This document shows, piece after piece, positions 4,947-41,568 of a stretch of DNA of 64,000 nt (the stretch's first letter is position 1; every line of letters starts with the position of its first letter). The notes beneath the pieces are model-generated. The model saw nothing but the letters and a program-made list of their open reading frames with translations. It ran no database searches and was not told the origin of the DNA. The position numbers and the translations under genes were made by a program. Location of the stretch: positions 128,334-192,333 of the forward strand of contig DRFQ01000009.1 in assembly GCA_011050465.1 (NCBI GenBank), written 5' to 3'. Origin of the DNA: Candidatus Nealsonbacteria bacterium (GTDB lineage Bacteria; Patescibacteriota; Minisyncoccia; Minisyncoccales; RBG-13-36-15).

Positions 4947-5486
4947 ATGAAGAAATTTATTCTCTTTTCGGGAATATTAATAATAGTTCTGGTTGTCGTC
5001 ATTATAGTTTGGAATGGCAAAGAAGCTGAGGAGTCCTTCATTGCCGTGAATAGTTTTGAAGAATGTTTAGCCCGAGGATATCCGGCTTTGGAATCTTATC
5101 CACGCCAGTGTAAAACAGACGGCAGAACATTCGTTGAAGATATAGGCAACGAGTTAGAAAAATTAGATCTCATTTTAATCAACAGTCCCCGGCCAAATGC
5201 CAAAATTAAAAGCCCCCTTGAGATTATGGGGCAGGCCAGGGGATACTGGTTTTTTGAGGGTGATTTCCCGGTGCAATTAGAAGATGGAAATGGCAAAGAA
5301 TTAGCTACAACTACAGCCCAAGCTTTTTCTGAATGGATGACAGATAAGTTTGTGCCATTTGAAGCTACTTTGGAATTTCAGAAACCTACAACAAATAGGG
5401 GAGTGTTAATCTTAGAAAAAGACAACCCTTCTGGTTTGCCGGAAAACGCCGACGAGTTAAGAGTCCCTGTGTACTTTGCTGATTAA
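4947..5486 (+). CDS. Gmad2 immunoglobulin-like domain protein (secreted)
   Basis: Signal anchor. GQARGYWFFEGDFPVQLEDGNG...FVPFEATLEF...ILEKDNPSGLPEN pattern. ATG at 4947 follows the track TTG. Confidence 0.65.
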   Translation: MKKFILFSGILIIVLVVVIIVWNGKEAEESFIAVNSFEECLARGYPALESYPRQCKTDGRTFVEDIGNELEKLDLILINSPRPNAKIKSPLEIMGQARGYWFFEGDFPVQLEDGNGKELATTTAQAFSEWMTDKFVPFEATLEFQKPTTNRGVLILEKDNPSGLPENADELRVPVYFAD

Positions 5487-5488
5487 TA

Positions 5489-5501
5489 TTGTGCGACATT
5501 T
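5489..5501 (+). repeat. TTGTGCGACATTT 13-mer copy
   Basis: The same 13-mer occurs at 25500-25512 and, reverse-complemented, at 36940-36952. Confidence 0.8.
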
Positions 5502-5597: not shown

Positions 5598-6836
5598 ATG
5601 AAAAAAGTTATAGGAATTGGCATTGGCATATTGTTTATACTTAGTATTTTTGTTGTGCCTATTGTGGCAGAAGCAAAAAAGGCAAGCATAGCTGAATTGC
5701 AGGTCTTGATTGAACAATTACAGCAACAGATCGAAGAATTAGAAGCAAAGATAGCGGAATTTCAACAATCAAAAGCAGAAGTGAAAGAAGCAGGAAAGGA
5801 AGTTAAAACAACGCTCAGGTTTATCCGACAACTACAATGGGGTATGACCGGCGAAGACGTGGAATTACTGCAAGAAATATTAAAAACAGACCCTGAAATT
5901 TATCCTGAAGGATTGGTTACGGGATACTTCGGTCCTTTAACTTATAACGCCGTAAAGAAATTTCAAAGAGCAGCGGGTATTGAACAGGCTGGCCGGGTCG
6001 GACCAAAGACGCTGTCTAAAATAAATGAATTACTCATAGAAGGCGTTGGTAGTTCAGGGAAAGTACCGCCAGGATTATTAATTGCACCTGGAATTAGAAA
6101 AAAACTTGGCTATATACCCGCAGTACCATCTGGGCAAGAACTTCCTCCAGGTATAAGTAAAAAATTAGATGAAGAAGAAGAAGAGGAGGAGGAGGAGGAT
6201 GTCACACCACCTCTAATTTCTGGATTATCCGCAATTGAGACGACAACTAATTCGACAATGATTACCTGGGTTACCGATGAAGAAGCAGATAGTAAGGTTT
6301 GGCATAGCGAATCAACTCCGGTTGATACAGAAGGGCCAGATCCGACTGTAAGCGATTCTGAATTGGTATTAGAACACAGCTTGGCGATATTTGATTTAGT
6401 CCCAGACACCACCTACTATTATGTTGTTTCTTCTACTGATGATGCAGATAATGTCACGACTTCAAGTGAATCTTCTTTCATAACTCTAGAGGAAGACACA
6501 ACAGCCCCTGTTGCCGTAACTGATCTTTCTGCTTTAAATGAGACAACTTCGTCAATCGATCTTTCCTGGACCGCTCCCGGAGATGACGGAAACACAGGAA
6601 CTGCTGCAAGTTATGATGTTCGTTACTCAACATCAGAAATTACTTCAGATAATTGGTCCTCTGCGACCCAGGCAACAGAAGAGCCAACCCCATCAGTTGC
6701 TGGTGCAACAGAATCAATGACAATATCAGGATTATCTGCAGAAACCACTTATCACTTTGCACTTAAAACTTCAGATGAAGTCCCCAACGAATCAAGTCTT
6801 TCTAATGTACCAAGTTTGGCGACATCGTCAGAGTAA
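5598..6836 (+). CDS. secreted peptidoglycan-binding protein with FN3-like repeats
   Basis: Signal peptide and coiled coil. PG_binding_1-like GEDVELLQEIL...GYFGPLTYNAVKKFQ. Poly-Glu linker, then two FN3-like modules (IDLSWTAPGDDG). Confidence 0.75.
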   Translation: MKKVIGIGIGILFILSIFVVPIVAEAKKASIAELQVLIEQLQQQIEELEAKIAEFQQSKAEVKEAGKEVKTTLRFIRQLQWGMTGEDVELLQEILKTDPEIYPEGLVTGYFGPLTYNAVKKFQRAAGIEQAGRVGPKTLSKINELLIEGVGSSGKVPPGLLIAPGIRKKLGYIPAVPSGQELPPGISKKLDEEEEEEEEEDVTPPLISGLSAIETTTNSTMITWVTDEEADSKVWHSESTPVDTEGPDPTVSDSELVLEHSLAIFDLVPDTTYYYVVSSTDDADNVTTSSESSFITLEEDTTAPVAVTDLSALNETTSSIDLSWTAPGDDGNTGTAASYDVRYSTSEITSDNWSSATQATEEPTPSVAGATESMTISGLSAETTYHFALKTSDEVPNESSLSNVPSLATSSE

Positions 6837-6914: not shown

Positions 6915-7871
6915 TTATTCTTTTAGATTTTTGCCGCTGTGAAACTTGCGATGAATATCACGGAGACGTTTATTTGTTACATGGGTATATACTTGGGTTG
7001 TAACAATATTTCTATGGCCCAAAAACTCCTGAATGCTTCTTAAATCAACGCCCTGGCTTAACAGATCTGTAGCGTAAGAATGCCGAAGGGTGTGGGGGGT
7101 AGTAAAAACGGGGACACCGGCCAATACGGCGTATTTTTTTACGATTCTCTCTATGGACCGAGGCGTTAAACGACTCTCTGCATCTTTTCTGGCCCTATAA
7201 TGAATAAATAAGGCCTTTTCTTTGTCTTTTCGGGTATCCAGATATTTTTTAATCCAGGACAGAGCCCTTTCTGAAAAATAGACTGTTCTGGGATGGCTTC
7301 CTTTGCCAATAATACTAAGTTCTAAATCCTTCTTATCTCTTATATTAACAAATTGCTCTTGGTTAAGGGCAACTAATTCAGCTATTCTTAGGCCTGTTGA
7401 GAAAAAGGACTCTAAAATAGCCTTATCCCTTAAGCCAATAGTGTCTTTTAACTTGGGAGTTGTTAAAAGCTTCTCAATTTGCTCCAAATTAAGGAATTTT
7501 ACGGTTTTTTCCTTGCTGGCTGTCTTTGGAAGACCTATTTTATCTGCGGGGAGTGAAGCTATGTCTTTAGCTGTAAAATAGCCCAGAAGGGCTCTCAGGG
7601 CGATTAAATAGTAGTTCTGGGTGACTTTCTTGAGAGACTGGCCCTTATTGCCCTGAAATCTGGAAAGATAAAGTCTATAAGTCCAGATATCGTCAGCAGT
7701 CAATTCATGGGGTCTCAAATCCGCCTTTTTGGCTCCCTTAAGCCACGAAACAAACTTCCCAAGGTAATGCTTATAATTTTCCTGGGTTTTGTCTGCTAAA
7801 CCTTTTTCAACTTCGCAATAATCTAAAAAATCGGGAATATGTTTTAAAATTGGTTTATCTGATTGTTTCAT
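6915..7871 (-). CDS. tyrosine site-specific recombinase (XerC/D-like)
   Basis: C-terminal HTLRHSYATDLL...LGHRNIVTTQVYTHV (R-H-R-Y catalytic pattern) and an N-terminal SAM-like domain. Confidence 0.9.
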   Translation of the reverse strand: MKQSDKPILKHIPDFLDYCEVEKGLADKTQENYKHYLGKFVSWLKGAKKADLRPHELTADDIWTYRLYLSRFQGNKGQSLKKVTQNYYLIALRALLGYFTAKDIASLPADKIGLPKTASKEKTVKFLNLEQIEKLLTTPKLKDTIGLRDKAILESFFSTGLRIAELVALNQEQFVNIRDKKDLELSIIGKGSHPRTVYFSERALSWIKKYLDTRKDKEKALFIHYRARKDAESRLTPRSIERIVKKYAVLAGVPVFTTPHTLRHSYATDLLSQGVDLRSIQEFLGHRNIVTTQVYTHVTNKRLRDIHRKFHSGKNLKE

Positions 7872-8119
7872 ATCGCAATAGATTAACCGGCATTATTAGA
7901 GGAGTTTTTTAAGCCCGTATAATAATGTCGCTTTACCTACATTGTGCGACTATCTCTACCTCTATAATAAACGGGGCAAAAGGCCTTGTCAAGTGCTCCC
8001 CTATAGGTTTATATATAAAGTATTTTAGAAACAAAAAGTCAGCTTAATAAGCTGACCTTGATCCTCCTCTTTTCTTTACGACGTCGAGATATATTTGACA
8101 TTGTTTTTGGGTCCAATCG

Positions 8120-8431
8120 CTAGCGAGAAAAAAAGAAGATGCGCCAGATACAGTCTTCAATTGTAACAAGAAATTCATTTTCACGAGGATAGTCTTTCTT
8201 GAATAAACGCTTTACTCGAATATAATGAACCTCTGTTATTTCATCGTTTCTGAAATGACCCTTTTTTTTGGAATTGATTACTCTTCGTGCTTTTCTTAAT
8301 GCCTTTGCCTTACTGTTTGGAGCCTGGAATTTGCAGTAAATAACTAGTATGGTAGAGATTCGAACTCGACCGTCAGTATATGGCTGGACATAAACGCCAT
8401 TACAAAGAACTTCTGCCTGCCACCATCTCAT
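8120..8431 (-). CDS. hypothetical protein (103 aa), cassette gene
   Basis: AAAGGAGGCAAAG SD; own promoter at 8494-8522; terminator hairpin GTCAGCTTATTAAGCTGAC at about 8038-8056. Confidence 0.5.
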   Translation of the reverse strand: MRWWQAEVLCNGVYVQPYTDGRVRISTILVIYCKFQAPNSKAKALRKARRVINSKKKGHFRNDEITEVHYIRVKRLFKKDYPRENEFLVTIEDCIWRIFFFSR

Positions 8432-8493
8432 GGACTTTGCCTCCTTTTGGGACAGCTTTATTCAATTTTTTAGGTACGGTCCTCCTTTTTGTT

Positions 8494-8522
8494 AAACTAC
8501 CCTTTTATAAGAAAGAAATCAA
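8494..8522 (-). promoter_or_regulatory. promoter (CCTCGGGCTTGA family)
   Basis: Minus strand reads CCTCGGGCTTGATT-N17-TAGTTT. Confidence 0.4.
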
Positions 8523-8588
8523 GCCCGAGGTAATATGTTCTTTAAAAACAAAAAGGCGGTGCGTAGCACCGCTTTGAAAATTGCCTCC

Positions 8589-9056
8589 TTATCCGATTAG
8601 TACTCCTATGTTTTCAAGAGATTGGATAGCTGCCAGGAAAACTTCATACGGCATATAGCTCATAGATGGTGAAAGTATTCTGACCTCGTTGTCTTGAAGT
8701 TCAATGCCAATGAAGTATAGTTCTTGGTCTGGTATTAATACATCTTCGGTCTCTTTTTCTATGCCACTGAATTTATAAAGTATTCGTCCATAATAGGAGA
8801 ATCCATTTCGGGGTACTGTAATCTTTGGCAGGAGTTGATGCCTACCTATAACATCCTTAACCGCAGCCATGTCGGTCGGGTTATCTGTTTTTGGCAGAAG
8901 AATATACAGAATTCCTTTTTCCAATGAATCGACTGGACCCCTTGCGAATGTTTCATCGTATGATATCCTCGCGTCCGAAAGCCCTCTATAATAGAGAACC
9001 CAACCTTTTCCAGTAATAGCCTGGAAGATTTCTTGGGCTTGTTGGTCCATAGCCAA
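8589..9056 (-). CDS. hypothetical protein (155 aa), cassette gene
   Basis: GGAGGTATTGG SD; own promoter at 9112-9139. Confidence 0.55.
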   Translation of the reverse strand: MAMDQQAQEIFQAITGKGWVLYYRGLSDARISYDETFARGPVDSLEKGILYILLPKTDNPTDMAAVKDVIGRHQLLPKITVPRNGFSYYGRILYKFSGIEKETEDVLIPDQELYFIGIELQDNEVRILSPSMSYMPYEVFLAAIQSLENIGVLIG

Positions 9057-9111
9057 TACCTCCTTTTCCAGCTCTAATCTTTCTTTTGAAGGAACTATTC
9101 ATCCTAAAAAT

Positions 9112-9139
9112 AGTCTAATGCTTTCAAATAATAAGTCAA
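9112..9139 (-). promoter_or_regulatory. promoter (CCTCGGRCTTGACTTAT...TAGACTATT family)
   Basis: Minus strand reads CCTCGGACTTGACT-N16-TAGACT. Confidence 0.6.
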
Positions 9140-9224
9140 GTCCGAGGCATCATTTGGAAACAAAAAGGCCCGCTTTTCGGCAGGCATCTAATGATATTCC
9201 TTCATAAAAGAGCAAGCTAATAAA

Positions 9225-9527
9225 TTAATCAAACGACGCAGACGGTCCTCTTTCTGAGTTTATAACAAACTGTACCATGGCTTGAAGGTGGCGAAAGTTA
9301 GTTCTATCATAAACTCCAATGCCAATAGGTCGACCACCAGACCACCAAAATACTTGGTGTCTTCCAATGCCATTAGTCGAACCCTTATATGTCCATGTTC
9401 CCCTTCTTGTATTAATTTCTACTTCCTCTGGCGCCCTTTTTTGTAAACTAATGAAACTATGGTTATTTGGAACAGGCGCAAGAAAAACTAAGTTCCTTCT
9501 CTTGTACTTCACTCTGGGAGTCGACAT
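9225..9527 (-). CDS. hypothetical protein (100 aa), cassette gene
   Basis: AAGGAGGGGAAGG SD; promoter at 9564-9591; terminator at 9160-9190. Confidence 0.5.
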   Translation of the reverse strand: MSTPRVKYKRRNLVFLAPVPNNHSFISLQKRAPEEVEINTRRGTWTYKGSTNGIGRHQVFWWSGGRPIGIGVYDRTNFRHLQAMVQFVINSERGPSASFD

Positions 9528-9563
9528 CCTTCCCCTCCTTGTCTTGGTAATGCTGCTAAGAAT

Positions 9564-9591
9564 AGTCTACAAAATATTCGATATAAGTCAA
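9564..9591 (-). promoter_or_regulatory. promoter (same family as 9112-9139)
   Basis: Minus strand reads CCTCGGGCTTGACT-N16-TAGACT. Confidence 0.6.
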
Positions 9592-9609
9592 GCCCGAGGC
9601 AACCACAAA

Positions 9610-9800
9610 ACAAAAAGCCGAGGACACAATTTGGATTGGATTAACCAGAACTCGGGTTGTCCCCAGCCTTGGAGAATGGCATCGTACTTCGTGGGTTTAC
9701 CACCAGTAAGCTTTACCCCCTCCTTGATGGATGGGGTTGGTTGGCCAGGGTTGACGCGAGGGTTCGGCTCTAATCTTACTGACTTCCCAACCTCATCCGT
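9610..9800 (-). ncRNA. candidate about 190-nt structured transcript (motif X, copy 1)
   Basis: Consensus promoter at 9806-9834 and a hairpin plus T-run at about 9610-9660. No plausible start codon. The 5' end is homologous to the leader at 43876-44023. Confidence 0.35.
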
Positions 9801-9805
9801 CTTCA

Positions 9806-9834
9806 ATTTTAATTTAAACTTAATTTTTTGTCAA
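9806..9834 (-). promoter_or_regulatory. consensus promoter of the motif-X transcript
   Basis: Minus strand reads TTGACA-N17-TAAAAT. Confidence 0.6.
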
Positions 9835-10034
9835 TAAAAAAAATGTTTGGAAAAAATAAAAATTGTTCAGCGATAATTTCTTTTAAAGTTAATAAACAAA
9901 CTATTAGTCCCCTACCCTGTCTCGCCTTGGTTTTGGAACAATTTTCCAATAATTAAACCAATAAGACTATAGTTTTTTCCGCTAACTCTTTAGTCTTACC
10001 TGTCAAAAAAATAGGTACTTTAAAAGAGGTTTAT

Positions 10035-11222
10035 TCAGAAAGAGTTCCTAGCTTCTTCTTCTTTGCCAGCTATTAAAGATAGTTCGTCTATCGTGGGTTT
10101 TTTCAAATATAAATTACCAGCTTCTCTATAGAGATTAGCGGCATTTTGATAGCCATTCCTTTCCAAAAATTTTGCAAATTCCAAACGGCCTACCGCCATT
10201 TCCCCGAGGAAGAAAGAATTCAGAGCTTCTCCTATTTCGAAAGCAGCATTCTCGGATATCTCTCTGTTCCAGGCCATTATCTCTTTTATTGATTTTCTTT
10301 TAGCTTTATCTTTAAGATAAAGCATCCAATAAGGACCAAGCTTGTGGCCCTCCATCTGAGGATTAGCACCATTTTCCCAAGCTTCTAAAAAGTTTTTGTA
10401 TGAAGCTGGCATATTTTTTATGGCTAAATCAGGGTCGTCAGGATCATTAATATAAACATAATTCTCATCATAACCAGTAACGATCATAAAGTGAGAGGCA
10501 TGAAATTTTTCCCATGCCCAGCTAGGAGAAATTTTGGCAAAATCATCGGTAACATAATAAAGATCTAAATGAACCAAAACTGGTTTGTCAGAGGAGATTA
10601 TACTTTTTAAATAGCGGGTAGCTTCTTCCTTATTACTAAAATATTTAACTTCTTTAGCGCTTTCCTTAAAATTAAATTGAGTTGGAGGTTCTGATCCAGC
10701 TGGAGGCGGAGGTGGTGGCGGAGGTGGTGGTGAAGTGCCAGGTGGTGGCGGAGGTGGTGGCGGTGGCAAATGATTGATTGAATCTTTGCCTCCAGACAAA
10801 AGTCCTAGTCCAAAATTATAGCCAAGGTTTTCGGCTCCAGTTATAATAGAATTTCCTTGGAAATCATTCGTTAAGCCAATAAAAGGAACAACATTTTTAG
10901 CTGTTACTCCAATCCCAGAATAGGCAACGATTTCAGTGAAATCTAAATCTGGATCATCAAATAAAGCCAACATCGCAAAAGCTCCAAGATAACATAAACC
11001 CGGCCCCTCTTCGGTTTCTTTTTCTTTTAGAACTTCCCCAGCAAAAACTCTTGAAACATTTAATTGGTAAGCCTGAGGAATAACTTTTTCCTTTTCCTCT
11101 AAAGAAGGTTCTTCTTCTGGGGCTGTCTCTTCTTCGGGAACAGAAATATTTTTCCACACAAAAAACCCTCCTACACCTAAGCCGATTAAAATTATTAAAA
11201 TGATTGAAATTTTGGTTTTCAT
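10035..11222 (-). CDS. secreted C39-like (BtrH/DUF4872-like) cysteine peptidase domain protein with a poly-Pro linker
   Basis: Signal anchor, GLCYLGAFAM (Cys), PPPPPPPPPPGTSPPPPPPPPPP linker, and HFMIVTGYDENYVYINDP (His). Confidence 0.6.
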   Translation of the reverse strand: MKTKISIILIILIGLGVGGFFVWKNISVPEEETAPEEEPSLEEKEKVIPQAYQLNVSRVFAGEVLKEKETEEGPGLCYLGAFAMLALFDDPDLDFTEIVAYSGIGVTAKNVVPFIGLTNDFQGNSIITGAENLGYNFGLGLLSGGKDSINHLPPPPPPPPPGTSPPPPPPPPPPAGSEPPTQFNFKESAKEVKYFSNKEEATRYLKSIISSDKPVLVHLDLYYVTDDFAKISPSWAWEKFHASHFMIVTGYDENYVYINDPDDPDLAIKNMPASYKNFLEAWENGANPQMEGHKLGPYWMLYLKDKAKRKSIKEIMAWNREISENAAFEIGEALNSFFLGEMAVGRLEFAKFLERNGYQNAANLYREAGNLYLKKPTIDELSLIAGKEEEARNSF

Positions 11223-11275
11223 TACCTTATTTTACTAAAAAACCGTCAGTCCCCTACTCCAACAGTTTGAGATAT

Positions 11276-11644
11276 TTAGTAATTTTTATATCTTCGTTCG
11301 TTAGTTTTATAACCGGTATCTGACGACCAAAAAAGAAATAATCTTTTTTTAAATCCACCTTTCTTTTTATTGCTTTCTTTTTGCGCTCTTTTTATCTGTT
11401 GGCTTGTAATTCCTTTAAATCTCTTTATTTCCTGAATAACATCTAAAACATCAGCCAACTCTGAAATTAACTTCTTTTTGGTTTTTGCTGCGAGCAAGCC
11501 ATCTGATTCCTCGCCTACTTTCTTTATAAGCTCTTTTTCAAATTCTTTTACCTTTAATTTTTTTATTTTAAAGTCTCCCCCGCTCTTTTTAATCTTTTCG
11601 GGAATTTTATCGCGAATTAGTTTGTTGTAGTAAATTCTTTTCAT
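11276..11644 (-). CDS. MazG-like / phosphoribosyl-ATP pyrophosphohydrolase-like NTP pyrophosphatase
   Basis: YNKLIRDKIPEKI N-terminus and the EESDGLL...ELADVLDVI helix pattern. Confidence 0.65.
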   Translation of the reverse strand: MKRIYYNKLIRDKIPEKIKKSGGDFKIKKLKVKEFEKELIKKVGEESDGLLAAKTKKKLISELADVLDVIQEIKRFKGITSQQIKRAQKESNKKKGGFKKRLFLFWSSDTGYKTNERRYKNY

Positions 11645-11799
11645 ACCCCATTTTTGTTTTATATTTTTAAATCAATAGGATTTCAAATAACATAATTAAA
11701 GAACCAAAAATAAGAGAAATTAAGATTACCATCCACCATTTTATTTTCTTATTAAGCAAACTCATATTTTTTCACGCTTTCATTAACTCTAAGAAAAGA

Positions 11800-12531
11800 T
11801 TATTCTGGCAGCCGAAGCCTGACAAAAGCCTCAGCAAAACGAAACCCTTCTTTCTTGCCAAACTCACCCGCTCTGTCTTTAATTCTCTTTTCCAAATTTT
11901 TGAAGTTCCCTATCTGGGATTTATGAACCATTAAAGCTTTAATTTTGATATCCATAGTTGCGGTCACGTCAATAAAGTAGTTGGCATCTTCTATTAAAAA
12001 GGTAGTAATAAATAACTCTTTTACTTTATGGGGCTGAAGTCCTGTTTTTTTGTGCTCGGGAAACGAGAGGCTGTCTCTGGCCAAAGGATAAGTAGCATCT
12101 AAAACAGCTTCTCCTATTGCCCGATGATCAGAGTGGTTAATAAAACCATATTCTTTGTAATAATAATGAACGGGGTTCATAGTAAAAACAAAATTTGGTT
12201 TATATCGCCTGATAAAACGAACTACCCTCTCTTTTAGTTCAATGTTGGGAACCAATTCTCCATCGTGATAATCCAGGAAGTGAACCTCTGCCACGCCCAG
12301 AATTTTAGCTGCCTCTATCTGTTCAGCTCTCCTTATCTCTCCCAGCTCCTCCGGGGTAATATTTTCATCGCTACTCCCCCTCTGACCGGAGGTGGCGATT
12401 AAATAGATGACCTTGGATCCTTCTTTTGTCGCTTTGGCAACGGTTGCTCCACAGACGAAATCATTGTCATCAGGATGGGCGCCAACTACCATTATTGTTT
12501 TATTTTTGAAATTAATTTCATTCATATTCAA
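11800..12531 (-). CDS. PIG-L/LmbE family deacetylase
   Basis: VVGAHPDDNDF and HSDH motifs. Confidence 0.85.
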   Translation of the reverse strand: MNMNEINFKNKTIMVVGAHPDDNDFVCGATVAKATKEGSKVIYLIATSGQRGSSDENITPEELGEIRRAEQIEAAKILGVAEVHFLDYHDGELVPNIELKERVVRFIRRYKPNFVFTMNPVHYYYKEYGFINHSDHRAIGEAVLDATYPLARDSLSFPEHKKTGLQPHKVKELFITTFLIEDANYFIDVTATMDIKIKALMVHKSQIGNFKNLEKRIKDRAGEFGKKEGFRFAEAFVRLRLPE

Positions 12532-13723
12532 TTAATAAACCGAGAATATTAAATGTTTTAACTAAGAAAGATTTGGCATCAGCCAAACTCATACTCCTAT
12601 TGGCACTTAAAGTTTTTTTGGCTAACTCCGCCAAAACGCTAATTGCTTTCTTGGTATCAAAATCATTGTTCATTGCTTCAAAAAATCTCTTTTCATAGCT
12701 CTTCACATTAAATGTTCTACCTGTGCCGGAAGATAAAAACCAAACCCTTTTAAATAAATCAGCAAGCCTTTCCGCTTTTTGAAGGTCCTGTTTATAAAAC
12801 TCCCAAACTGAACGATAATGATGAGAAAGAAGCAGAAGCCTTATCGTGTTAGCGCTATATATTTTCCGTAAATCATCAATTAAAATTAAGTTCCCCAAAG
12901 ACTTGCTCATTTTTTTTCTTCGATAGCGCAGCATTCCAGTATGCAGCCAATATCTGACAAATGGCTGGCCGGTTGCTTTCTCCGACTGGGCGATTGAACT
13001 TTCGTGATGAGGAAAAATCAAATCAGACCCTCCCCCATAAATATCAATTGTTTCGCCGAGGTATTTTTGTGACATAGCGCTGCATTCGATATGCCAACCC
13101 GGCCTTCCTTCGCCCCAGGGAGAAGGCCAAAAGGGTTCTTTGGGTTTTTGGGCTTGCCAAAGAACAAAATCAAGGGGATTTTTCTTGTTGGGATCATTTG
13201 GGTTATTGCCCCGTTCATTGGCAATGAGCAGCATTTTCTTTTTCGAGAGTTTGCTCAGCTTTCCGTATTCCTTATCTTTCTTAATTGAAAAGTAAACATT
13301 TCCTTTTCTTTCATAGGCAAAGCCATTCTTCTGAAGCTTTTTAACTATTTCTATCATTTCTTTGATGTGATCAGTAGCTCGAGGATAAAAATCAGGTTGG
13401 AGGTTGTTGAGCCATTTCATTTCTTCCAGAAATTTTTGAGAATTATTTCTAACCACTTCCCTCCAATTCTTCCTCAACTTAGCAGATTCTTTCAGGATAT
13501 CATCATCAATATCTGTCAGATTTTGCACATAGATAACCTTATAACCAAGAAACTTTAAATATCTGATTACCACGTCAAAAAAAACGTAAGTGAAAGCATG
13601 CCCTAAATGGGTAACGTCATAGGGGGTAATGCCGCAAACATAAATGCCTGTTCTTTTATTGGAATTTTGCCGAAAGACTTCTCTTTTTCTTGTTTGCGAA
13701 TTAAAGATTTTCAGTCCTTTCAT
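12518..13723 (-). CDS. cysS: cysteine--tRNA ligase (short form)
   Basis: THLGHAFTY (HIGH-type) and KMSKSLGN motifs. Confidence 0.92.
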
Positions 13724-13739
13724 AACATTAACAAGCTTT

Positions 13740-14027
13740 TTATTTTATTATCTCTTTTTCGTATTCGGGAAAATATTTACTAATCACGTTGAGGTTAAAC
13801 TCTCTAAGGATTGATTCTTTCGGTTCCCTTTCAAGCAAGAATTCAAAAGATTTTCTTACAAGTTCTTCCGGCGTGAGCTGACCGTGTGCTTGCCCTGAGC
13901 TTGTCGAAGGGGTTAATTTTTCCCAATATTCTTTATCAAGCGTTACTGCATATTCAATGTCATCAATCCCAACCAAAAAATTCCATCCACTCTCAATTTG
14001 TTCCTTTTTTTTAATTTCAACATCCAT
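13740..14027 (-). CDS. hypothetical protein (95 aa) carrying an in-frame GC-rich mini-repeat
   Basis: The PSTSSGQAHGQ segment is encoded by repeat copy 13888-13912. TAGAAT-N6-ATG start context. Confidence 0.5.
   Translation of the reverse strand: MDVEIKKKEQIESGWNFLVGIDDIEYAVTLDKEYWEKLTPSTSSGQAHGQLTPEELVRKSFEFLLEREPKESILREFNLNVISKYFPEYEKEIIK
13888..13912. repeat. GC-rich mini-repeat copy
   Basis: GCTTGCCCTGAGCTTGTCGAAGGGG, inside the ORF. Confidence 0.75.
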
Positions 14028-14104
14028 TTTTAAATTCTACCAGAAAACCGCTTTTTTGGCACTGTTAATCCCCCACTCTATCTTGATTAAAAAAACTTTT
14101 CCAC

Positions 14105-14133
14105 TTGACATGCTTTTATGAATTTGTTATTAA
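14105..14133 (+). promoter_or_regulatory. promoter of the orphan small transcript
   Basis: TTGACA-N17-TATTAA. Confidence 0.45.
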
Positions 14134-14139
14134 ATAAGC

Positions 14140-14256
14140 AGTACACTAAGTTAAATAATGAGCCGCATGGCTCACCAAATGGTGGAAGCGTAGAGAAACC
14201 TCTTTCTCTCCTCCCCATCCTCAACAGGGTTTTTTCGGAAACCCTTCTTTTTTTTA
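14140..14256 (+). ncRNA. candidate CU-rich small RNA (about 115 nt)
   Basis: Promoter, GAGCCGCATGGCTC hairpin, CCTCTTTCTCTCCTCCCC tract, then GGGTTT-TTTCGG-AAACCC plus a T-run. No + strand gene lies downstream. Confidence 0.3.
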
Positions 14257-14260
14257 TTAA

Positions 14261-25462: not shown

Positions 25463-25498
25463 GTTTTACTCTTAACGGCTCCACGACGCTTTTTATAC

Positions 25499-25512
25499 CT
25501 TGTGCGACATTT
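25499..25512 (+). repeat. left copy of the 14-bp inverted repeat CTTGTGCGACATTT
   Basis: Its exact reverse complement lies at 36940-36953. Confidence 0.85.
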
Positions 25513-31530: not shown

Positions 31531-31592
31531 ATTGAGCTGAATTTGTCGCTTTTTGTGCCTTGCGCGACGTTTTTAGGCTAAATTTTAGTTAT

Positions 31593-36830: not shown

Positions 36831-36905
36831 AAGGTTATTTTAATTAATCTACCTTAATTTTGCCACTTTTGGATTATTTTGTCTATTTATCAAAGATCTA
36901 AATAC

Positions 36906-36935
36906 TCGACATTTGTCGACATTTGTCGACATTTT
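36906..36935. repeat. three 10-bp-phased TGTCGACA palindromes (iteron/operator-like)
   Basis: TCGACATTTGTCGACATTTGTCGACATTTT, 76-105 bp upstream of the methylase ATG. Confidence 0.8.
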
Positions 36936-36939
36936 CTTG

Positions 36940-36953
36940 AAATGTCGCACAAG
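36940..36953 (-). repeat. right copy of the 14-bp inverted repeat
   Basis: Plus strand reads AAATGTCGCACAAG, the reverse complement of 25499-25512. Confidence 0.85.
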
Positions 36954-36994
36954 ATGCGTTATGCGACGCACATCATGATTATACGTATCAGGGA

Positions 36995-37027
36995 AACAAA
37001 AAAGGCCTCTGGCTGGTGCCTGAGGCT
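36995..37027 (-). terminator. T1-family terminator (cassette a)
   Basis: Minus strand reads GCCTCAGGCACCAGCCAGAGGCC plus a T-run. The 30 nt at 36999-37028 are identical to 37464-37493. Confidence 0.8.
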
Positions 37028-37040
37028 AAGGAATTCTTGA

Positions 37041-37388
37041 TTAGAGGGCTGCGAAAAGTTCTTTTAGTGCAGGAAGCTCCTCTTTGCAAATAGTAAGGTG
37101 TCGAGATGGCCATCCGCCAAAACTCATTTTTGATTTATTCCCTATCAATAGTCTGTAATAGTATTCTTCTTCTACTAATCGTGCTACCCTTGGTGCTTTT
37201 TCTGTTGCTATGGAGCCTCTAAGCCGAACTTCTCCTACGATTCTTGTTTTATTTCCCCTTTCCTTTTCCATTTTTGGGTCTACTCTACGAATAGTCTCAA
37301 CGAAAGCTGAAATCGAGTGTGTTCCGCTTCTTCTTCTGGCAGAACGACGAGCACTTAGAACTATTGCACTTGTTGTTCTTTTTGCCAT
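37041..37388 (-). CDS. hypothetical protein (115 aa), cassette a
   Basis: Track ORF trimmed: the -10 box sits at 37432-37437, and GGAGGTGAAAACAATG gives MAKRTTSAIV... Confidence 0.55.
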   Translation of the reverse strand: MAKRTTSAIVLSARRSARRRSGTHSISAFVETIRRVDPKMEKERGNKTRIVGEVRLRGSIATEKAPRVARLVEEEYYYRLLIGNKSKMSFGGWPSRHLTICKEELPALKELFAAL

Positions 37389-37431
37389 TGTTTTCACCTC
37401 CACAGGTTGTATAAGAGCTATTTGATACTTC

Positions 37432-37460
37432 ACCCTATTACATCCTTAGTTTTTTGTCAA
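37432..37460 (-). promoter_or_regulatory. P1-family promoter (cassette a)
   Basis: Minus strand reads TTGACAAAAAACTAAGGATGTAATAGGGT. Confidence 0.65.
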
Positions 37461-37462
37461 AA

Positions 37463-37491
37463 CAAAAAGGCCTCTGGCTGGTGCCTGAGGC
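37463..37491 (-). terminator. T1-family terminator (cassette b)
   Basis: Identical hairpin to cassette a. Its T-run runs straight into the -35 of promoter a. Confidence 0.8.
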
Positions 37492-37534
37492 TATGGAAAG
37501 AACAAAAAAACCTTGTATTGTATGTGAAGGTTCT

Positions 37535-37777
37535 TTAATACCCCGTCGTAAAAATTGTAATCGTTATAAAAAACGATAATAATACATATAGTAAAATGAA
37601 GGTTCTCTTGCCTTCTTGCAACCAAAAGGTGAACGAGGCTATCCACATACTAACTGCCATAATAAAATGCAAGAAAATGGAACCAAAAAAGATATTTAAC
37701 ATACTCATAACAACCACAAAAAAAATAATTCTTAGGGCGATACTTCTCTTCTCTATACTTTGATCCATTGTCCTCAT
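37535..37777 (-). CDS. small membrane protein (80 aa, 3 TM), cassette b
   Basis: Hydrophobic throughout; own promoter and terminator. Confidence 0.55.
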   Translation of the reverse strand: MRTMDQSIEKRSIALRIIFFVVVMSMLNIFFGSIFLHFIMAVSMWIASFTFWLQEGKRTFILLYVLLSFFITITIFTTGY

Positions 37778-37813
37778 TTCCTAGTTTGGAACGAACTAAC
37801 GAAGAACTGCTTA

Positions 37814-37842
37814 ACTCTATTACAACCTTAGTTATTTGTCAA
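37814..37842 (-). promoter_or_regulatory. P1-family promoter (cassette b)
   Basis: Minus strand reads TTGACAAATAACTAAGGTTGTAATAGAGT. Confidence 0.65.
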
Positions 37843-37843
37843 A

Positions 37844-37867
37844 CCCTTCGATAAACTCAGGGTAAAC
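37844..37867. repeat. GC-rich mini-repeat copy (inverted orientation)
   Basis: CCCTTCGATAAACTCAGGGTAAAC, wedged between terminator c and promoter b. Confidence 0.6.
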
Positions 37868-37900
37868 AAAAAGGCCTCGATGCTCTGCTGAGCCGAGGCT
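37866..37900 (-). terminator. terminator (cassette c)
   Basis: Minus strand reads GCCTCGGCTCAGCAGAGCATCGAGGCC plus TTTTTGTTT. Confidence 0.7.
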
Positions 37901-37917
37901 TGTACAGAATATGTCTC

Positions 37918-38235
37918 TTAGTTCAAAAGTTTTTGAAGATCTTCTCCTTGTAGAACTTGCCGTTGACCTTCTGTTGGCTCAAAAGTTAGCTGTTCTGAAA
38001 CCCAGATAAATAGGGATCCTCTTTGAAGAAATCTTTCTCTTTGAAGAAAAATAAATCTTCCCTTTGGAGTTACGATCGAGACCTCACGGTTACAAAGATC
38101 GCTTGGTATTCCAAAGGGATCGCCGAACGTTACAACTTGAAGATCAGAAAGACTCAAAGCAATATTGTTGGTTGCTGCCAGTTTTTCTGCGGCTTTCATC
38201 TCTTCTGAAATTTCGGTTAGGTCGATTCTGTCCAC
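37918..38235 (-). CDS. hypothetical protein (105 aa), cassette c
   Basis: GTG start 6 nt after AAGGAGG. Confidence 0.55.
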   Translation of the reverse strand: MDRIDLTEISEEMKAAEKLAATNNIALSLSDLQVVTFGDPFGIPSDLCNREVSIVTPKGRFIFLQRERFLQRGSLFIWVSEQLTFEPTEGQRQVLQGEDLQKLLN

Positions 38236-38282
38236 GTTTCCCCTCCTTATTTAGGAATGAATGAACTAATTAACGATTTTTA

Positions 38283-38311
38283 ATTATATTACATCCTTAG
38301 TTATTTGTCAA
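38283..38311 (-). promoter_or_regulatory. P1-family promoter (cassette c)
   Basis: Minus strand reads TTGACAAATAACTAAGGATGTAATATAAT. Confidence 0.7.
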
Positions 38312-38451
38312 CTCAAAATAGCCCTATTTTTGGAAAAAATCAAATTCCTTCCCCACCCCGCCTATCGATATCTGTCTACCGACAAATCCACAAAAAATAC
38401 CATAGCGGGAACAAGCTAAAAAATTATTAGGGCTTTAACGACGTGCAACCG

Positions 38452-38480
38452 TTGACAAATCACTAAAAATATAATATGGT
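38452..38480 (+). promoter_or_regulatory. P1-family promoter (cassette d)
   Basis: TTGACAAATCACTAAAAATATAATATGGT. The 5'UTR (CTTATACAACGGAGGTAAAAACAATG) is homologous to that of cassette a. Confidence 0.65.
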
Positions 38481-38522
38481 TAGATATCAATAGATAGCCC
38501 TTATACAACGGAGGTAAAAACA

Positions 38523-38717
38523 ATGAAAGGAAGCGAAGTAGTAGGAAAGTGCCCACACTGTGGAGGAGACATTATTGACCGAAAAAAGCTCGTGGGTATA
38601 GTTGCCATTTTGATGCAAAGTCCGACACCAGAACTGGCTGTTGAAAAAATAACAGAGAATGAAAAGCCATATTTCTGCGGCGATTGTAGTGAGGAATTCG
38701 ACACTGTTCCGTCGTAA
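38523..38717 (+). CDS. zinc-ribbon protein (64 aa), cassette d
   Basis: CPHCGG...CGDC. Confidence 0.6.
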   Translation: MKGSEVVGKCPHCGGDIIDRKKLVGIVAILMQSPTPELAVEKITENEKPYFCGDCSEEFDTVPS

Positions 38718-38742
38718 CCGATTAGAGAGCTTTCGTTCATAT

Positions 38743-38776
38743 CCTCAGGCGCAAGCCAGAGGCCTTTTTTGTTTTT
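38743..38776 (+). terminator. T1-family terminator (cassette d)
   Basis: CCTCAGGCGCAAGCCAGAGGCC plus TTTTTTGTTTTT. Confidence 0.8.
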
Positions 38777-38847
38777 CTCTTGATCCCCTACCACTTTTTA
38801 TCTTTTATGTTTACATTCTATCTCAAACCTAAAAAAGTGGTGGGGGG

Positions 38848-38875
38848 TTGACTAAAGCTGTAGAAGAATTATCAT
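38848..38875 (+). promoter_or_regulatory. promoter of structured element copy 1
   Basis: GGTGGGGGGTTGACT-N16-TATCAT, about 85% identical to 44487-44520 on the minus strand. Confidence 0.6.
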
Positions 38876-38881
38876 TAACTC

Positions 38882-39079
38882 AGGAGAGAGGAGGTGGTCG
38901 CTTTTACCTTCGCGAACAACCCAGGCTGGGGCGGCCTGGGACGAATGACCTCCCTCTGGTCATTGGTCACTTTCTCTCTCCTATCAACTCTTTACAGTTC
39001 TTTCTACGACAAGCTCTTTGGGACGTATGTCCCACATCGCAGGGCCACCACCAACAACAACATCGGTGGCCTTTTTTTT
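38882..39079 (+). ncRNA. structured non-coding element, copy 1 (about 200 nt)
   Basis: 15-bp closing helix GGAGAGAGGAGGTGG / CCACTTTCTCTCTCC. Inner hairpins CCCAGGC/GCCTGGG and AATGACC/GGTCATT. 3' hairpin TGGGAC-GTAT-GTCCCA, then terminator GGCCACC...GGTGGCC plus T8. Confidence 0.5.
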
Positions 39080-39106
39080 GACAAATCATTAAGGATGTAA
39101 TATGGT
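39078..39106 (+). promoter_or_regulatory. P1-family promoter
   Basis: TTGACAAATCATTAAGGATGTAATATGGT; its -35 overlaps the preceding T-run. Confidence 0.65.
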
Positions 39107-39151
39107 TAAGTAGCAATAAACAGCACATTCCCAAGAAGAAGGGAATCAAAG

Positions 39152-39550
39152 ATGGCTCAAAGCCCATCGGAAATAGAAAAGAAAACCCGCCTTAAAGAAT
39201 TATGGATGTTACTATTTGGTAACCCAATCAATCTAACTGACCCCGAGATTGAAAGATTACTTGAGTCTGAAAAAGAACTTAGAACAATTTTGCATTTTAC
39301 CTACAGTGGATTTCCCCATCAGATAGAAAGAGTAAAAAAACATCATGCCAAAAAGAAAGAGCTATCTGAACTGCCTACAGAGAAGTTGGTGGAAATGAAA
39401 TGTGCGATAGAAGAAAATAGACTGGCTGTTCTTAGGTCAACCAACGAGGAAGAACTTTCAGATTCATTCTTTGAGGCTCCTCCCATTGACTCCAATGAAC
39501 ACATCCTGAATGAGATTCTAAAAGAACGGGGTGTTGACTGGCGAAAATAG
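39152..39550 (+). CDS. hypothetical protein (132 aa), cassette e
   Basis: Own P1 promoter and terminator. Confidence 0.55.
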   Translation: MAQSPSEIEKKTRLKELWMLLFGNPINLTDPEIERLLESEKELRTILHFTYSGFPHQIERVKKHHAKKKELSELPTEKLVEMKCAIEENRLAVLRSTNEEELSDSFFEAPPIDSNEHILNEILKERGVDWRK

Positions 39551-39588
39551 AAAGATTCTTAAACAGGCAATCCCGATTCGATATATAA

Positions 39589-39622
39589 GCCTCTGGCTCA
39601 CGCTAAGAGGCCTTTTTGTTTT
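39589..39622 (+). terminator. T1-like terminator (cassette e)
   Basis: GCCTCTGGCTCACGCTAAGAGGCC plus TTTTTGTTTT. Confidence 0.75.
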
Positions 39623-39720
39623 CCGGCTTGCCTCGGGCTTGAATTCTTTTATTTAACATGATAGGCTAAAAATCCAAACATAGCACCTTTACAGCTTAGA
39701 CCGAAAAGGGGGTAAGAAAA

Positions 39721-40293
39721 GTGAAATACCTCTTGTTGCTTTATCTAATCCAGCCCTACATAGATGTTTTCATTGGCGAAGAACCGCCCGACGTAAAGAA
39801 AAAATTTGCTGCCCTCTATAAAAAGATTGTGCGAGAAAGATATCCAGGGTTCCAAGTAGTTTGTGTATTTTTTTCTAAACCAAGCGAAAAAAAAGAACCT
39901 GACCTTTCTCAGAAGTGGGATATTTTTTCACTTGAAGAAAGCTATACTATAGAGGCCTGTGGAGTAACATTCGCTGATCATTGTGATAATCAAACATATC
40001 CCAAAGAAAACGACATTCTTGAATTATGTCCTGGCCCAATTGATGAATTGATTGTTAGCGGATTCCATTTTTCTGATTGCGTAGAAAAAATTGCCAAGTT
40101 TGCCCACAAGCAAGGCATTCAAGTTTTTGTAGATGAAGATCTAACAGAATTATTCTTTTATGGAATAAAAATGGGAGTTCCAATTTCTCGTGAAGCAAGC
40201 ATAAGAAGAACAAAAAAGTTGTTCAGAGAAAGTTTGCTTCTGGATTTTGTGCGCGAAAACCGTAAAGGGAGACCATGGCTGGTCCAGCTTTAA
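39721..40293 (+). CDS. hypothetical protein (190 aa), weak isochorismatase/cysteine-hydrolase-like C-terminal pattern
   Basis: GTG start after AAGGGGG. LIVSGFHFSDCVEKIAKFAHKQGIQVFVDEDL resembles the isochorismatase-fold core. Promoter CCTCGGGCTTGAAT at about 39633-39670. Confidence 0.5.
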   Translation: MKYLLLLYLIQPYIDVFIGEEPPDVKKKFAALYKKIVRERYPGFQVVCVFFSKPSEKKEPDLSQKWDIFSLEESYTIEACGVTFADHCDNQTYPKENDILELCPGPIDELIVSGFHFSDCVEKIAKFAHKQGIQVFVDEDLTELFFYGIKMGVPISREASIRRTKKLFRESLLLDFVRENRKGRPWLVQL

Positions 40294-40493
40294 GCTGAGT
40301 CACCAATACGACTTGGCTTTTTTTGTTCTTAATGACCAATAGTAGCTCGCCGTTTGTAACCTAAGAAGCCATGGATAATGGTCTGCTAATCTCTCGACTC
40401 CGCTCAGGGTGGTAAGCCTATCGAACCATTGGCTTAAGTTTGAGATGGAGGCAAGGATTTAATGCCCGAGAGTTGTTGCCCCTCGTGAAAAAC

Positions 40494-40522
40494 TTGACAA
40501 ATTCAAAGTATGGGAGTATAAT
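40494..40522 (+). promoter_or_regulatory. consensus promoter of structured element copy 2
   Basis: TTGACA-N17-TATAAT. Confidence 0.65.
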
Positions 40523-40528
40523 GCTATT

Positions 40529-40797
40529 ATTGACTGATATTCGTTCTTTTTGAAAAAATGTTGTCAGCTATTCAGCAAATTGTTCATCTGAAAAGGTGGT
40601 CAGCTTGCTGGACAGATGAAAGGAGACGTTCGCCAATAGCCCAAGATGGTGGAGCTGTCGCAGGCGCCGGCCAGCTTGGGCGCACTAGATCAACCAGATC
40701 ATCCGCGCGTATACCTGCCATCTGTTCGGCACAGCACTTTTCGAGGACTTATGTCCTCACCTATAGGGTCACCCATAACAACAACGGTGGCCCTTTT
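40529..40797 (+). ncRNA. candidate non-coding transcript sharing the 3' module of copy 1
   Basis: GAGGAC-TTAT-GTCCTC hairpin plus GGGTCACC..AACAACAAC..GGTGGCCC terminator. There are two compensatory changes relative to 39019-39071. Confidence 0.35.
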
Positions 40798-40829
40798 ACT
40801 TTCTACCTATCTTTTAGATGGGTTTTTGT

Positions 40830-40858
40830 TTGACAAATAACTAGAAATGTAATAATAT
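40830..40858 (+). promoter_or_regulatory. P1-family promoter
   Basis: TTGACAAATAACTAGAAATGTAATAATAT. Confidence 0.6.
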
Positions 40859-40903
40859 CGAATTAAATAGTACATTTGTCGCCATAACGACAAGGAGGTA
40901 GTA

Positions 40904-41083
40904 ATGGCGAACGAGATTTTATTATGCGGCGGCGCAGTTTTACAAGGCGTCGAGAGAGCGGTTGATGAGGGGGGTGAGGATCTTGTTGTCACCCTAGAAA
41001 ATGTAGGGACAGTTCTTGTTCCTAAAGGGAATATAGCAAAGATTGACATACTAATAGAAACCGAAGAAGAACCCGACGAATAA
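40904..41083 (+). CDS. hypothetical acidic protein (59 aa, below the track cutoff), cassette f
   Basis: AAGGAGGTAGTAATG. MANEILLCGGAVLQGVERAVDEGGEDLVVTLENVGTVLVPKGNIAKIDILIETEEEPDE. Terminator at 41124-41151. Confidence 0.55.
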   Translation: MANEILLCGGAVLQGVERAVDEGGEDLVVTLENVGTVLVPKGNIAKIDILIETEEEPDE

Positions 41084-41123
41084 ATAATTTCTAGTTCTTT
41101 ACTTACTATTCAATCCTTCTTCA

Positions 41124-41151
41124 AGGTCTCGCTCAGAGACCTTTTTGTTTT
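41124..41151 (+). terminator. intrinsic terminator (cassette f)
   Basis: AGGTCTC-GCTCA-GAGACCT plus TTTTGTTTT. Confidence 0.75.
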
Positions 41152-41171
41152 CAAAAGGAGTTATTGGGCTT

Positions 41172-41246
41172 GCCCTCCCAAATTCGCCGCAGAGGCGAAC
41201 TTAGGCGGGCTTGACTTATTTATTGAGGTTGTTATGATATAAAATC
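41172..41246 (+). repeat. 75-bp inverted repeat, left arm (hairpin plus promoter)
   Basis: GCCCTCCCAAATTCGCCGCAGAGGCGAACTTAGGCGGGCTTGACTTATTTATTGAGGTTGTTATGATATAAAATC. 74/75 identical to the reverse complement of 45285-45359. Confidence 0.9.
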
Positions 41247-41283
41247 GTAGAGGAAGGACAGCACTTTCAAGGAGGTTAAAAAG

Positions 41284-41568
41284 GTGGCAGAGACAACCGA
41301 AAACAAACGGCAAAGTGGACAAGTCAAAGATGGAAAATGGTTGGTGCTAACCGAGAGTACTAGAAAGCCAGACAAGTGCTATACACATACCTGTGGCACA
41401 GAAATTTTAGGCGAAAAAATAGCTCATCCTGTTTGGGATGGTCCGACTCCACTTTCTGGACACGGTCAGTGCGAATATGAAATGGTTCCTTATTGTCCAA
41501 AATGCGAAAATAAACCAAACCCTCAAGGGGTGCCGATAACTCCCAAGGGTAGCCATCGTAATCTTTGA
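41284..41568 (+). CDS. zinc-ribbon protein, paralog of 2054..2371
   Basis: GTG start 8 nt after AAGGAGG; shared C..CG..IL...VPYCP.CE..P pattern. Confidence 0.6.
   Translation: MAETTENKRQSGQVKDGKWLVLTESTRKPDKCYTHTCGTEILGEKIAHPVWDGPTPLSGHGQCEYEMVPYCPKCENKPNPQGVPITPKGSHRNL

Follow-up and report, generated by a model that had tools for sequence, protein, structure and literature searches.

Phage morons, known from lambdoid phages, are autonomous units of promoter, open reading frame (ORF) and terminator that lie between genes adjacent in related genomes. We describe here three small ORFs of similar build (ORF100, ORF153 and ORF103, named after their lengths in amino acids) upstream of, and co-directional with, the gene for a Xer-type tyrosine recombinase. 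They lie in a 64,000-nucleotide stretch, hereafter the window, of a 362-kb contig of Candidatus Nealsonbacteria bacterium, a member of the candidate phyla radiation (CPR; Patescibacteria) from marine sediment. All four genes are on the minus strand, and housekeeping genes flank the region. As in morons, each unit comprises one ORF with a promoter, a Shine-Dalgarno (SD) sequence and an intrinsic terminator of its own, the ORF103 unit falls precisely in the gap between two genes, ORF153 and xer, that are neighbours in relatives, and the cargo is patchy in its distribution. Unlike morons, the units are carried by a CPR chromosome with neither phage genes nor viral homologues, and they reuse a few promoter and terminator linkers, where exchanges appear to occur. 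We consider it rather probable that the three ORFs are moron-like accessory units, turned over by general recombination at these linkers in the variable flank of a xer–dif module.

The recombinase itself can be compared with the single-recombinase systems XerS/difSL, XerH/difH, and archaeal XerA, in which dif is linked to xer (PMC5357621, PMC2731167). The locus has, as they do, one Xer gene with a palindromic 11-6-11-type site immediately upstream, a skew switch, and lineage-wide conservation, but the window Xer falls below the curated cut-offs for XerC, XerD, XerA, and XerS, its site lies inside the xer 5' leader, and extra inverted half-sites flank the gene. Besides, small accessory modules at Xer sites have been described in Acinetobacter as pdif/dif modules and as integrative mobile elements exploiting Xer (IMEX) (PMC6449649, PMC12907356). 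The window likewise holds accessory modules near Xer sites, and related species have single genes bracketed by half-sites, partly inverted; on the other hand, the window cassettes have no Xer sites at their edges and are chromosomal, at the probable terminus, and the half-sites here have only one good arm.

Build of the three units

An earlier note on this DNA had reported three ORFs of 103, 155, and 100 amino acids, each with a promoter of one family, a strong AAGGAGG-type SD, and a hairpin terminator, and had taken them for accessory cargo associated with the recombinase. The position, orientation, and build of the three ORFs were borne out, except that the 155-residue ORF is better read as 153 residues, an ATG start at 9050 being likelier than TTG at 9056. 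The motif CCTCGGRCTTGAYT occurs in three exact copies on the minus strand (8517-8530, 9134-9147, and 9586-9599), one for each ORF. The window holds four matches, one of them with 1 mismatch, against 0.04 expected, and 0 of 100 shuffles reached four. The motif overlaps a -35 element: with promoters and terminators assigned by consensus match, the units of ORF100 and ORF153 scored as having TTGACT-16-TAGACT promoters, and the promoter of ORF103 (TTGATT...TAGTTT) is weaker. Two of these promoters (9112-9150 and 9564-9602) had been put at about 75% identity, but they agree at 25 of 39 positions (64%), the shared part being limited to 19 nt that include the -35, plus the -10, with unrelated spacers.

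An SD lies 5 to 8 nt before each ATG (AAGGAGG for ORF100 and AAAGGAGG for ORF153 and ORF103), and hairpin terminators were found at 8035-8059, 8556-8572, and 9168-9185, each followed by (C)TTTTTGTTT. These hairpins are short, perfect, GC-rich stems with T-tracts, ending in CTTTTTGTTT, and the edges of the units coincide with such terminator tails. By consensus matches, a single ORF is enclosed in each case by its own promoter and its own terminator (Table 1).

The tail CTTTTTGTTT occurs 13 times in the window against 1.4 expected. About 9 of the 13 copies are in the two islands, that is, beside Xer and in a second island described below, and the sites include 8029-8038, 8546-8555, 9158-9167, and 9608-9617, as well as others at 37.4 to 44.7 kb. 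It is about four times less dense in 839 kb of related loci than in the window, and in relatives it often overlaps the next -35 element (TTTTTGTTTGACA).

Turnover of the units between close relatives

Two of the three units are clean indels relative to close relatives, and this upholds the view of them as accessory cargo. In the contigs L013, L014, and L015, the leader promoter and hairpin leader come first, followed by ORF153, a terminator, and Xer, and the Xer DNA of L013 and L014 is 95% identical to that of the window. The ORF103 unit is absent from all three. The junction of this unit lies within a direct repeat of 15 nt, CTTTTTGTTTYTAAA, which comes from the tails of the ORF153 and ORF103 terminators, and positions 596-610 of L013 align to both copies of this repeat in the window.

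The second indel, also relative to L013, L014, and L015, is a 617-bp insert in the ORF153 leader, and it has three parts: a foreign 3' fragment of 99 nt that carries a terminator (9618-9716), then the ORF100 unit, and an outward-facing ORF153 promoter (9112-9147). Three independent contigs agree in its junctions (9717|9099), which show AGGA-type microhomology only. The 99-nt fragment and the promoter piece had no match elsewhere among the sequences compared. The insert separates ORF153 from its ancestral promoter and leader, of which a long hairpin (about 9725-9795) has persisted in relatives although bases of its stem have changed; the leader matched no Rfam family. The outward promoter at the end of the insert would restore transcription of ORF153, cut off from its original promoter. 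ORF153 and xer are adjacent in all three relatives, as expected of a moron insertion of the ORF103 unit, and the ORF100 insert interrupts the ORF153 leader. A transcript from the TTGACA promoter (9806-9834) in the window should end at the terminator near 9618, as an orphan RNA of about 200 nt.

A further contig, L019, which overlaps L015, does contain the ORF100 unit, about 300 nt further upstream and outside the leader. In L015 and L019, the leader promoter directly adjoins a conserved non-coding element, with the junction in a T-run, which indicates that the intervening 4.2 kb of the window (9844-14088) is placed differently there. This segment holds CysS and four other genes, with PIG-L and a C39-like peptidase among its contents. 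The element itself (window 14086-14260, minus strand) is 89% identical in relatives and has three hairpins and a fold z-score of -5.6. Junctions of three kinds were therefore seen, namely a terminator-tail repeat, a microhomology, and a T-run. Besides, synonymous divergence (dS) in the same genome pair is four times higher in ORF153 than in the adjacent Xer (0.28 versus 0.07), which points to mosaic recombination.

The wider distribution of the three families was followed in a survey of Xer loci, in which one genome per species was scanned to give 80 loci (L020-L099, at least 80 species) of Nealsonbacteria and neighbouring Paceibacteria-type lineages. Conservation of the three genes at this place across Nealsonbacteria species was looked for and not found: within 6 kb of Xer in the 80 related species, the families were absent, save for one remote ORF100-like match in L029. 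ORF103 homologues occur instead beside a tRNA and ComEC (L016) and beside DUF218 (L018), one with a GGCTTGACTTAT promoter and the other with TTGACAAAAAACTAAGGACATAATA. An ORF153 homologue of 61% identity keeps a CGGGCTTGACTTAT promoter and is located in an island whose units join as CTTTTTGTTT|TTGACA, and neither Xer nor dif lies within 5 kb. In L051, the terminator type and the flank at the Xer promoter are kept and the intervening genes differ. ORFs, promoters, and terminators are accordingly combined differently in different genomes. Taken together, the indels in relatives, the contexts of the homologues, and the dS gap show a modular make-up, with recombination between units at their terminator and promoter linkers.

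Each unit begins with a promoter of sigma-70 type, whose -35 is preceded directly by a G-rich block, and continues with a strong SD and a small ORF up to an intrinsic terminator that ends in CTTTTTGTTT. In the process that we envisage, such units would have collected upstream of the xer–dif module, in its variable flank. The general recombination of the cell, homologous or by short homology, may gain, lose, and shuffle them where terminator-tail and promoter linkers are reused, probably following uptake of DNA from relatives, and the neighbouring Xer would not be the agent of their movement.

It could be argued that nothing here is mobile, the ORFs being lineage-specific orphans and the similar promoters reflecting the consensus of the host housekeeping sigma factor. 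A G-rich block indeed precedes CTTGAC in the Xer promoters of many species (GGGGAG..CTTGACA), and T5-6GTT terminator tails are present at housekeeping genes, too (the D1 family). For the promoter and terminator motifs this view is true in part, but it is contradicted by the indels, since presence, absence, and relocation between close relatives are precise. Furthermore, the full motif CCTCGGRCTTGA has no occurrence in the 839 kb of related loci, where GGCTTGACTTAT occurs five times, always in Xer-adjacent units. We regard this explanation as unlikely.

Independent assemblies of the same strain end within the cassette region (L002 at 9148, L005 at 8587, and L006 at 8720), and one of these contig breaks coincides exactly with the first base of the CCTCGG motif. 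Structural variants that coexist in the population possibly lie behind these ends.

The xer–dif module and the question of Xer-driven capture

The recombinase has N-terminal SAM-like domains beside its PF00589 catalytic domain, and the catalytic residues of tyrosine recombinases (R..HxxR..H..Y) can be read from its sequence in GLRIAEL, HTLRHSYAT, and LGH...VYTH. The NCBIfam models of XerD, XerC, and XerA match over the full length at 187 to 217 bits, all below their curated equivalog cut-offs (XerD, 216.1 versus 329.6; XerC, 212.8 versus 335.2; XerA, 187.1 versus 220), as is the XerS model (109.7 versus 267). On these scores, we assign the enzyme to a separate, Xer-like subfamily. Its orthologues in the 80 species loci are 61 to 83% identical in amino acid sequence, and the window holds no paralogue. 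Downstream, the backbone Xer-UppS-L27 is conserved across these loci, with 0 to 5 kb of variable DNA in the gap between Xer and UppS; upstream of Xer, nothing is common to the window and the 80 loci. The recombinase is the single Xer of this lineage and is encoded by a core gene.

By aligning the 200 nt upstream of each Xer orthologue, we found a dif-like site with the consensus ATGTCGCACAATGTAGGTAAAGCGACAT. A matching site lies upstream of Xer in 73 of the 76 species loci searched, about 70 of them convincing, with the palindrome placed after the Xer promoter and before the start codon. The window copy scores 42.8 bits on a position weight matrix (PWM) built from 61 sites, for which the shuffle maximum was 13.1. 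Its arms are laid out as 11-6-11, as in known dif sites, and the left arm and centre, TCGCA(C/T)AATGTA, resemble canonical dif, which is GCGCATAATGTATA in E. coli; the canonical pattern ATAATRTAYATTATGTNAA gave chance-level matches only. In L087 and L091 the site is inverted relative to xer, implying a DNA site, since an RNA element could not invert. An AT-rich palindrome, ATACTTTATATATAAACCTAT (8003-8023), was considered as dif and dropped; it is conserved in close relatives only and resembles promoter-upstream DNA. The cumulative G-C curve of the window has its maximum at 7 kb, where genes converge (6.87 kb), and GC skew changes sign at Xer in 46 of the 48 species loci with enough flank. The conserved Xer, the adjacent dif-like site, and the skew switch together indicate a chromosomal xer–dif module, which probably sits at the replication terminus; 7925-7952 would be its putative site of FtsK-controlled recombination. 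The module is very well conserved yet previously undescribed; for Patescibacteria, we found no publication on it in the literature searched.

These properties bear on two readings in which the recombinase would be a specialised mobile-element enzyme. In an integron-like platform, it would capture cassettes at attC-like hairpins into an array, and, as in integrons, a tyrosine recombinase does stand beside an array of co-oriented single-ORF units, each ending in a hairpin and a conserved tail. The enzyme is, however, a core dimer-resolution Xer rather than IntI: the IntI models TIGR02249 (90 versus a cut-off of 265) and NF011946 (52.9 versus 435) match less well than the Xer models, and the gene is core and, in at least 46 species, lies where the skew switches. 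The orientation is also wrong, the recombinase being downstream and co-directional and not divergent; every unit has a promoter of its own; the hairpins are ordinary terminators with T-tracts, with no attC or attI and no GTTRRRY core visible at the boundaries as read from the sequence; and none of the 80 other species has the array. We give this reading hardly any credence.

A prophage or integrative-element remnant, with a phage-type integrase and its morons, is scarcely more credible. PHROG integrase families do match the recombinase, and a build of promoter, ORF, and terminator is typical of phage morons. Against this, the recombinase is a core orthologue with conserved UppS and L27 synteny, the three ORFs match no PHROG family and have no relative in IMG/VR, the flanks are housekeeping genes, and att-like direct repeats enclosing the whole region, which the earlier note had suggested as a check, were not found. 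Besides, no tRNA or transfer-messenger RNA was available as an integration target. Rfam searches of the whole window at gathering thresholds and of 7800-10100 in E-value mode gave nothing meaningful; the best match, a Trp-leader lookalike, is merely the ORF103 terminator.

A more serious alternative is offered by partial dif sites. The half-dif sequence ATGTCGCACAATATTA consists of the dif left arm with a different centre and is sharply positioned around Xer in the species loci: in the 80 loci, 59 plus-oriented copies lie 0 to 1000 nt past the Xer stop, just beyond the Xer terminator, and 27 minus-oriented copies lie 200 to 1500 nt upstream, against about 6 copies elsewhere within 6 kb on either side. 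The copies flanking xer are inverted and lie within repeats of about 70 nt that include a terminator; 8 loci have tandem copies. Where the half-site is displaced or repeated, each interval contains one small gene, from many different families. In L090, a block that comprises the Xer 3' end, a terminator, and a half-site is duplicated and encloses a promoter-bearing unit. The window itself has an FN3/PG-binding gene (5598-6836) between its half-site and Xer, and it is this interval, together with those of other species, in which genes were found flanked as in dif modules.

Xer-mobilised modules, similar to dif modules or IMEX, would account for the cassettes as older insertions with decayed dif-like or half-dif sites. 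In addition to the half-site pattern, this reading can draw on a dif-like site at the edge of the second island (36942-36969), on a homologous site that precedes the unit of the ORF103 homologue in L016 (and in L017), and on the family of the gene at 39721-40293, which in L030, L044, and L056 recurs in the interval from Xer to the downstream half-site (similarity judged by eye). In its broadest form, which we consider improbable, Nealsonbacteria and perhaps other CPR would use the single Xer as a gene-capture system, with inverted half-dif sites bracketing xer–dif. Promoter-bearing single-gene modules might then, with equally little assurance, be inserted, stacked, and exchanged at half-dif sites, and secondary islands be marked by dif-like sites such as 36942-36969; that our three cassettes were drawn from the same circulating pool of modules is conceivable but doubtful.

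Several results speak against Xer as the agent. No dif-like site or half-site was found in 7960-10100, where the best PWM score was -7.8 bits versus 42.8 for dif, and none is near the junctions at 8038, 8541, 9100, 9716, and 9843, which are of three kinds unlike one another. Homologues of ORF153 and ORF103 occur without Xer or dif nearby. In the comparison of L066 with L072, extra DNA lies beside the repeat that contains the half-site, but homology is not interrupted at the half-site, and an inner insertion is at a terminator-tail|promoter boundary. Because these insertions lie off the half-site, we rate Xer-driven capture as improbable, though worth keeping in view. The association with the recombinase that had been proposed as a mechanism is unsupported, given the lack of dif-like sites at the junctions, the three junction kinds, and the homologues without Xer; the enzyme is a core Xer with its own dif-like site. 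The earlier note had named as contrary outcomes that the recombinase is the conserved chromosomal Xer and that the three genes are core; the former proved true and the latter did not.

Some observations weigh against turnover of moron-like units by general recombination. The close relatives L013, L014, and L015 are short contigs of 1 to 1.7 kb from read-level assemblies; the same junctions were seen again in three runs. The 15-nt repeat would equally allow deletion of the ORF103 unit in the relatives, and the event may have run in either direction. The concentration of the CTTTTTGTTT tail could mean that the tail itself is part of an unrecognised recombination site. As the cassettes lie 90 bp to 1.9 kb from dif and half-dif sites bracket variable genes, a Xer route with eroded sites retains some small likelihood. 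Finally, AlphaFold models of the proteins were poor or marginal (predicted local distance difference test values of 52 and 72), and Foldseek found no match for them.

The second island (36900-45400) consists of small self-contained units with the promoter family TTGACAAAWAACTAAGGATGTAATA and the terminator family GGCCTCTGGC...GCCAGAGGCCTTTTTGTTT, and it includes GC-rich, apparently non-coding parts at about 38848-39075, 40480-40815, and 44240-44520. It has promoter and terminator families in common with the Xer-side units and holds a fourth CCTCGGGCTTGA promoter. The claim that the upstream motif recurs there stands for this copy, with 1 mismatch, and not for the inverted repeats, which contain GGCGGGCTTGACTTAT and not the full CCTCGG motif. 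These repeats are 97 nt long rather than 75 bp (41154-41250 and 45281-45377) and are inward-facing copies of a promoter, 5' untranslated region, and SD. Two dif-like palindromes in addition to that at the island edge occur on the minus strand at 25483-25510 and 31543-31570; the three score 21.0, 20.7, and 13.4 bits, in this order, against the shuffle maximum of 13.1, have GTCGCRCAAG left arms in common, and are all intergenic. Possibly they are pseudo-dif sites or operators.

Table 1. Coordinates in the window of the features discussed in the text
Feature	Position	Strand	Remarks
Half-dif ATGTCGCACAATATTA	5484-5499	-	Sole perfect copy of the window; 1.4 kb past the Xer stop
Xer-type tyrosine recombinase gene, 318 aa	6915-7871	-	PF00589, E=3e-37; core gene of the lineage
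dif-like site TAGTCGCACAA-TGTAGG-TAAAGCGACAT	7925-7952	-	28 bp, inverted arms, 6-nt centre; between the Xer -10 and ATG
Xer promoter TTGACA-17-TATTAT	7964-7992	-	11/12 match; position conserved across species
Direct-repeat copy 2 CTTTTTGTTTCTAAA, ORF103 terminator tail	8024-8038	-	From alignment with L013
ORF103 unit	8039-8540	-	Promoter motif 8517-8530, SD, ORF 8120-8431, terminator 8035-8059
ORF103, 103 aa	8120-8431	-	C-terminal tail of the homologues lost
Direct-repeat copy 1 CTTTTTGTTTTTAAA, ORF153 terminator tail	8541-8555	-	From alignment with L013
ORF153 with terminator hairpin 8556-8572	8556-9050	-	Beside Xer only in the closest relatives
ORF153, 153 aa	8589-9050	-	SD-served ATG at 9050; 155 aa from TTG at 9056
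617-bp insert	9100-9716	-	Relative to L013, L014, and L015; in the ORF153 leader
ORF100 unit, terminator tail to terminator tail	9158-9617	-	CTTTTTGTTT at both ends; motif 9586-9599, TTGACT-16-TAGACT 9564-9591, SD, ORF 9225-9527, hairpin 9168-9185; 91% identical to L019 245-700
ORF100, 100 aa	9225-9527	-	86%-identical homologue called elsewhere
Ancestral ORF153 promoter TTGACA-17-TAAAAT (9806-9834) and 5' leader	9717-9843	-	85-90% identical in L013, L015, and L019
dif-like palindrome ATGTCGCACAA-GATGCG-TTATGCGACGC	36942-36969	+	PWM 21.0 bits; left edge of the second island
Fourth promoter motif copy CCTCGGGCTTGAAT	39631-39644	+	Drives the 190-aa gene 39721-40293 of the second island

The encoded proteins and the meaning of the locus

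None of the three proteins matched a Pfam, PHROG, NCBIfam, or PADLOC family, in line with the earlier statement that no family was recognised, and remote homology searches and structure prediction, which had also been proposed, yielded nothing usable. The ORF153 family comprises five 90%-identity clusters in 5.8 billion proteins, and a profile search retrieved 48 representatives at 50% identity among 1.84 billion proteins; a profile of 37 family members had no match in Pfam or among Protein Data Bank sequences, and a metagenome scan with a narrow alignment found one locus. We found two homologues of ORF103 and one of ORF100, the latter 86% identical in protein sequence. No viral relatives of the three proteins were found in IMG/VR.

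The ratios of nonsynonymous to synonymous substitution rates (dN/dS), 0.14 for ORF103, 0.2 to 0.46 for ORF153, and 0.6 for ORF100, indicate that the ORFs are coding. ORF103 carries a frameshift in a T7 run and lacks a C-terminal tail, about 20 residues long, that its 121-residue homologues possess, which suggests that it has recently been truncated or is decaying; the tail (CRRYIAA..) is still legible in the +1 frame at window 8120-8160 on the minus strand. All three proteins lack hydrophobic segments, ORF100 and ORF103 being very basic and ORF153 acidic. We take them to be real, soluble, and lineage-restricted proteins; that they serve as strain-specific factors in interactions with hosts or phages is a low-confidence guess. 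A 172-residue ORF on the plus strand (window 9319-9837) overlaps ORF100 and the ORF153 leader and was chosen over ORF100 by gene callers; it is probably spurious, because it is not kept in L019, whereas ORF100 is.

CPR bacteria have tiny genomes with few recognisable mobile elements, so that little is understood of how they acquire strain-specific genes. At this locus, self-expressing small genes can be seen, to the base pair, to be added, removed, and re-linked to different promoters between close relatives. Furthermore, the xer–dif module is usable as a marker of dif and the terminus for closing and orienting Nealsonbacteria genomes, and the units supply candidate strong promoters and terminators for organisms without genetics. 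The locus also poses a testable question, that is, whether gene flux at the terminus is due to Xer or to general recombination at reused linkers. If capture by Xer, which we rate as doubtful, were true, it would be a chromosomal counterpart of the Acinetobacter dif modules or of the integron in ultra-small symbionts.

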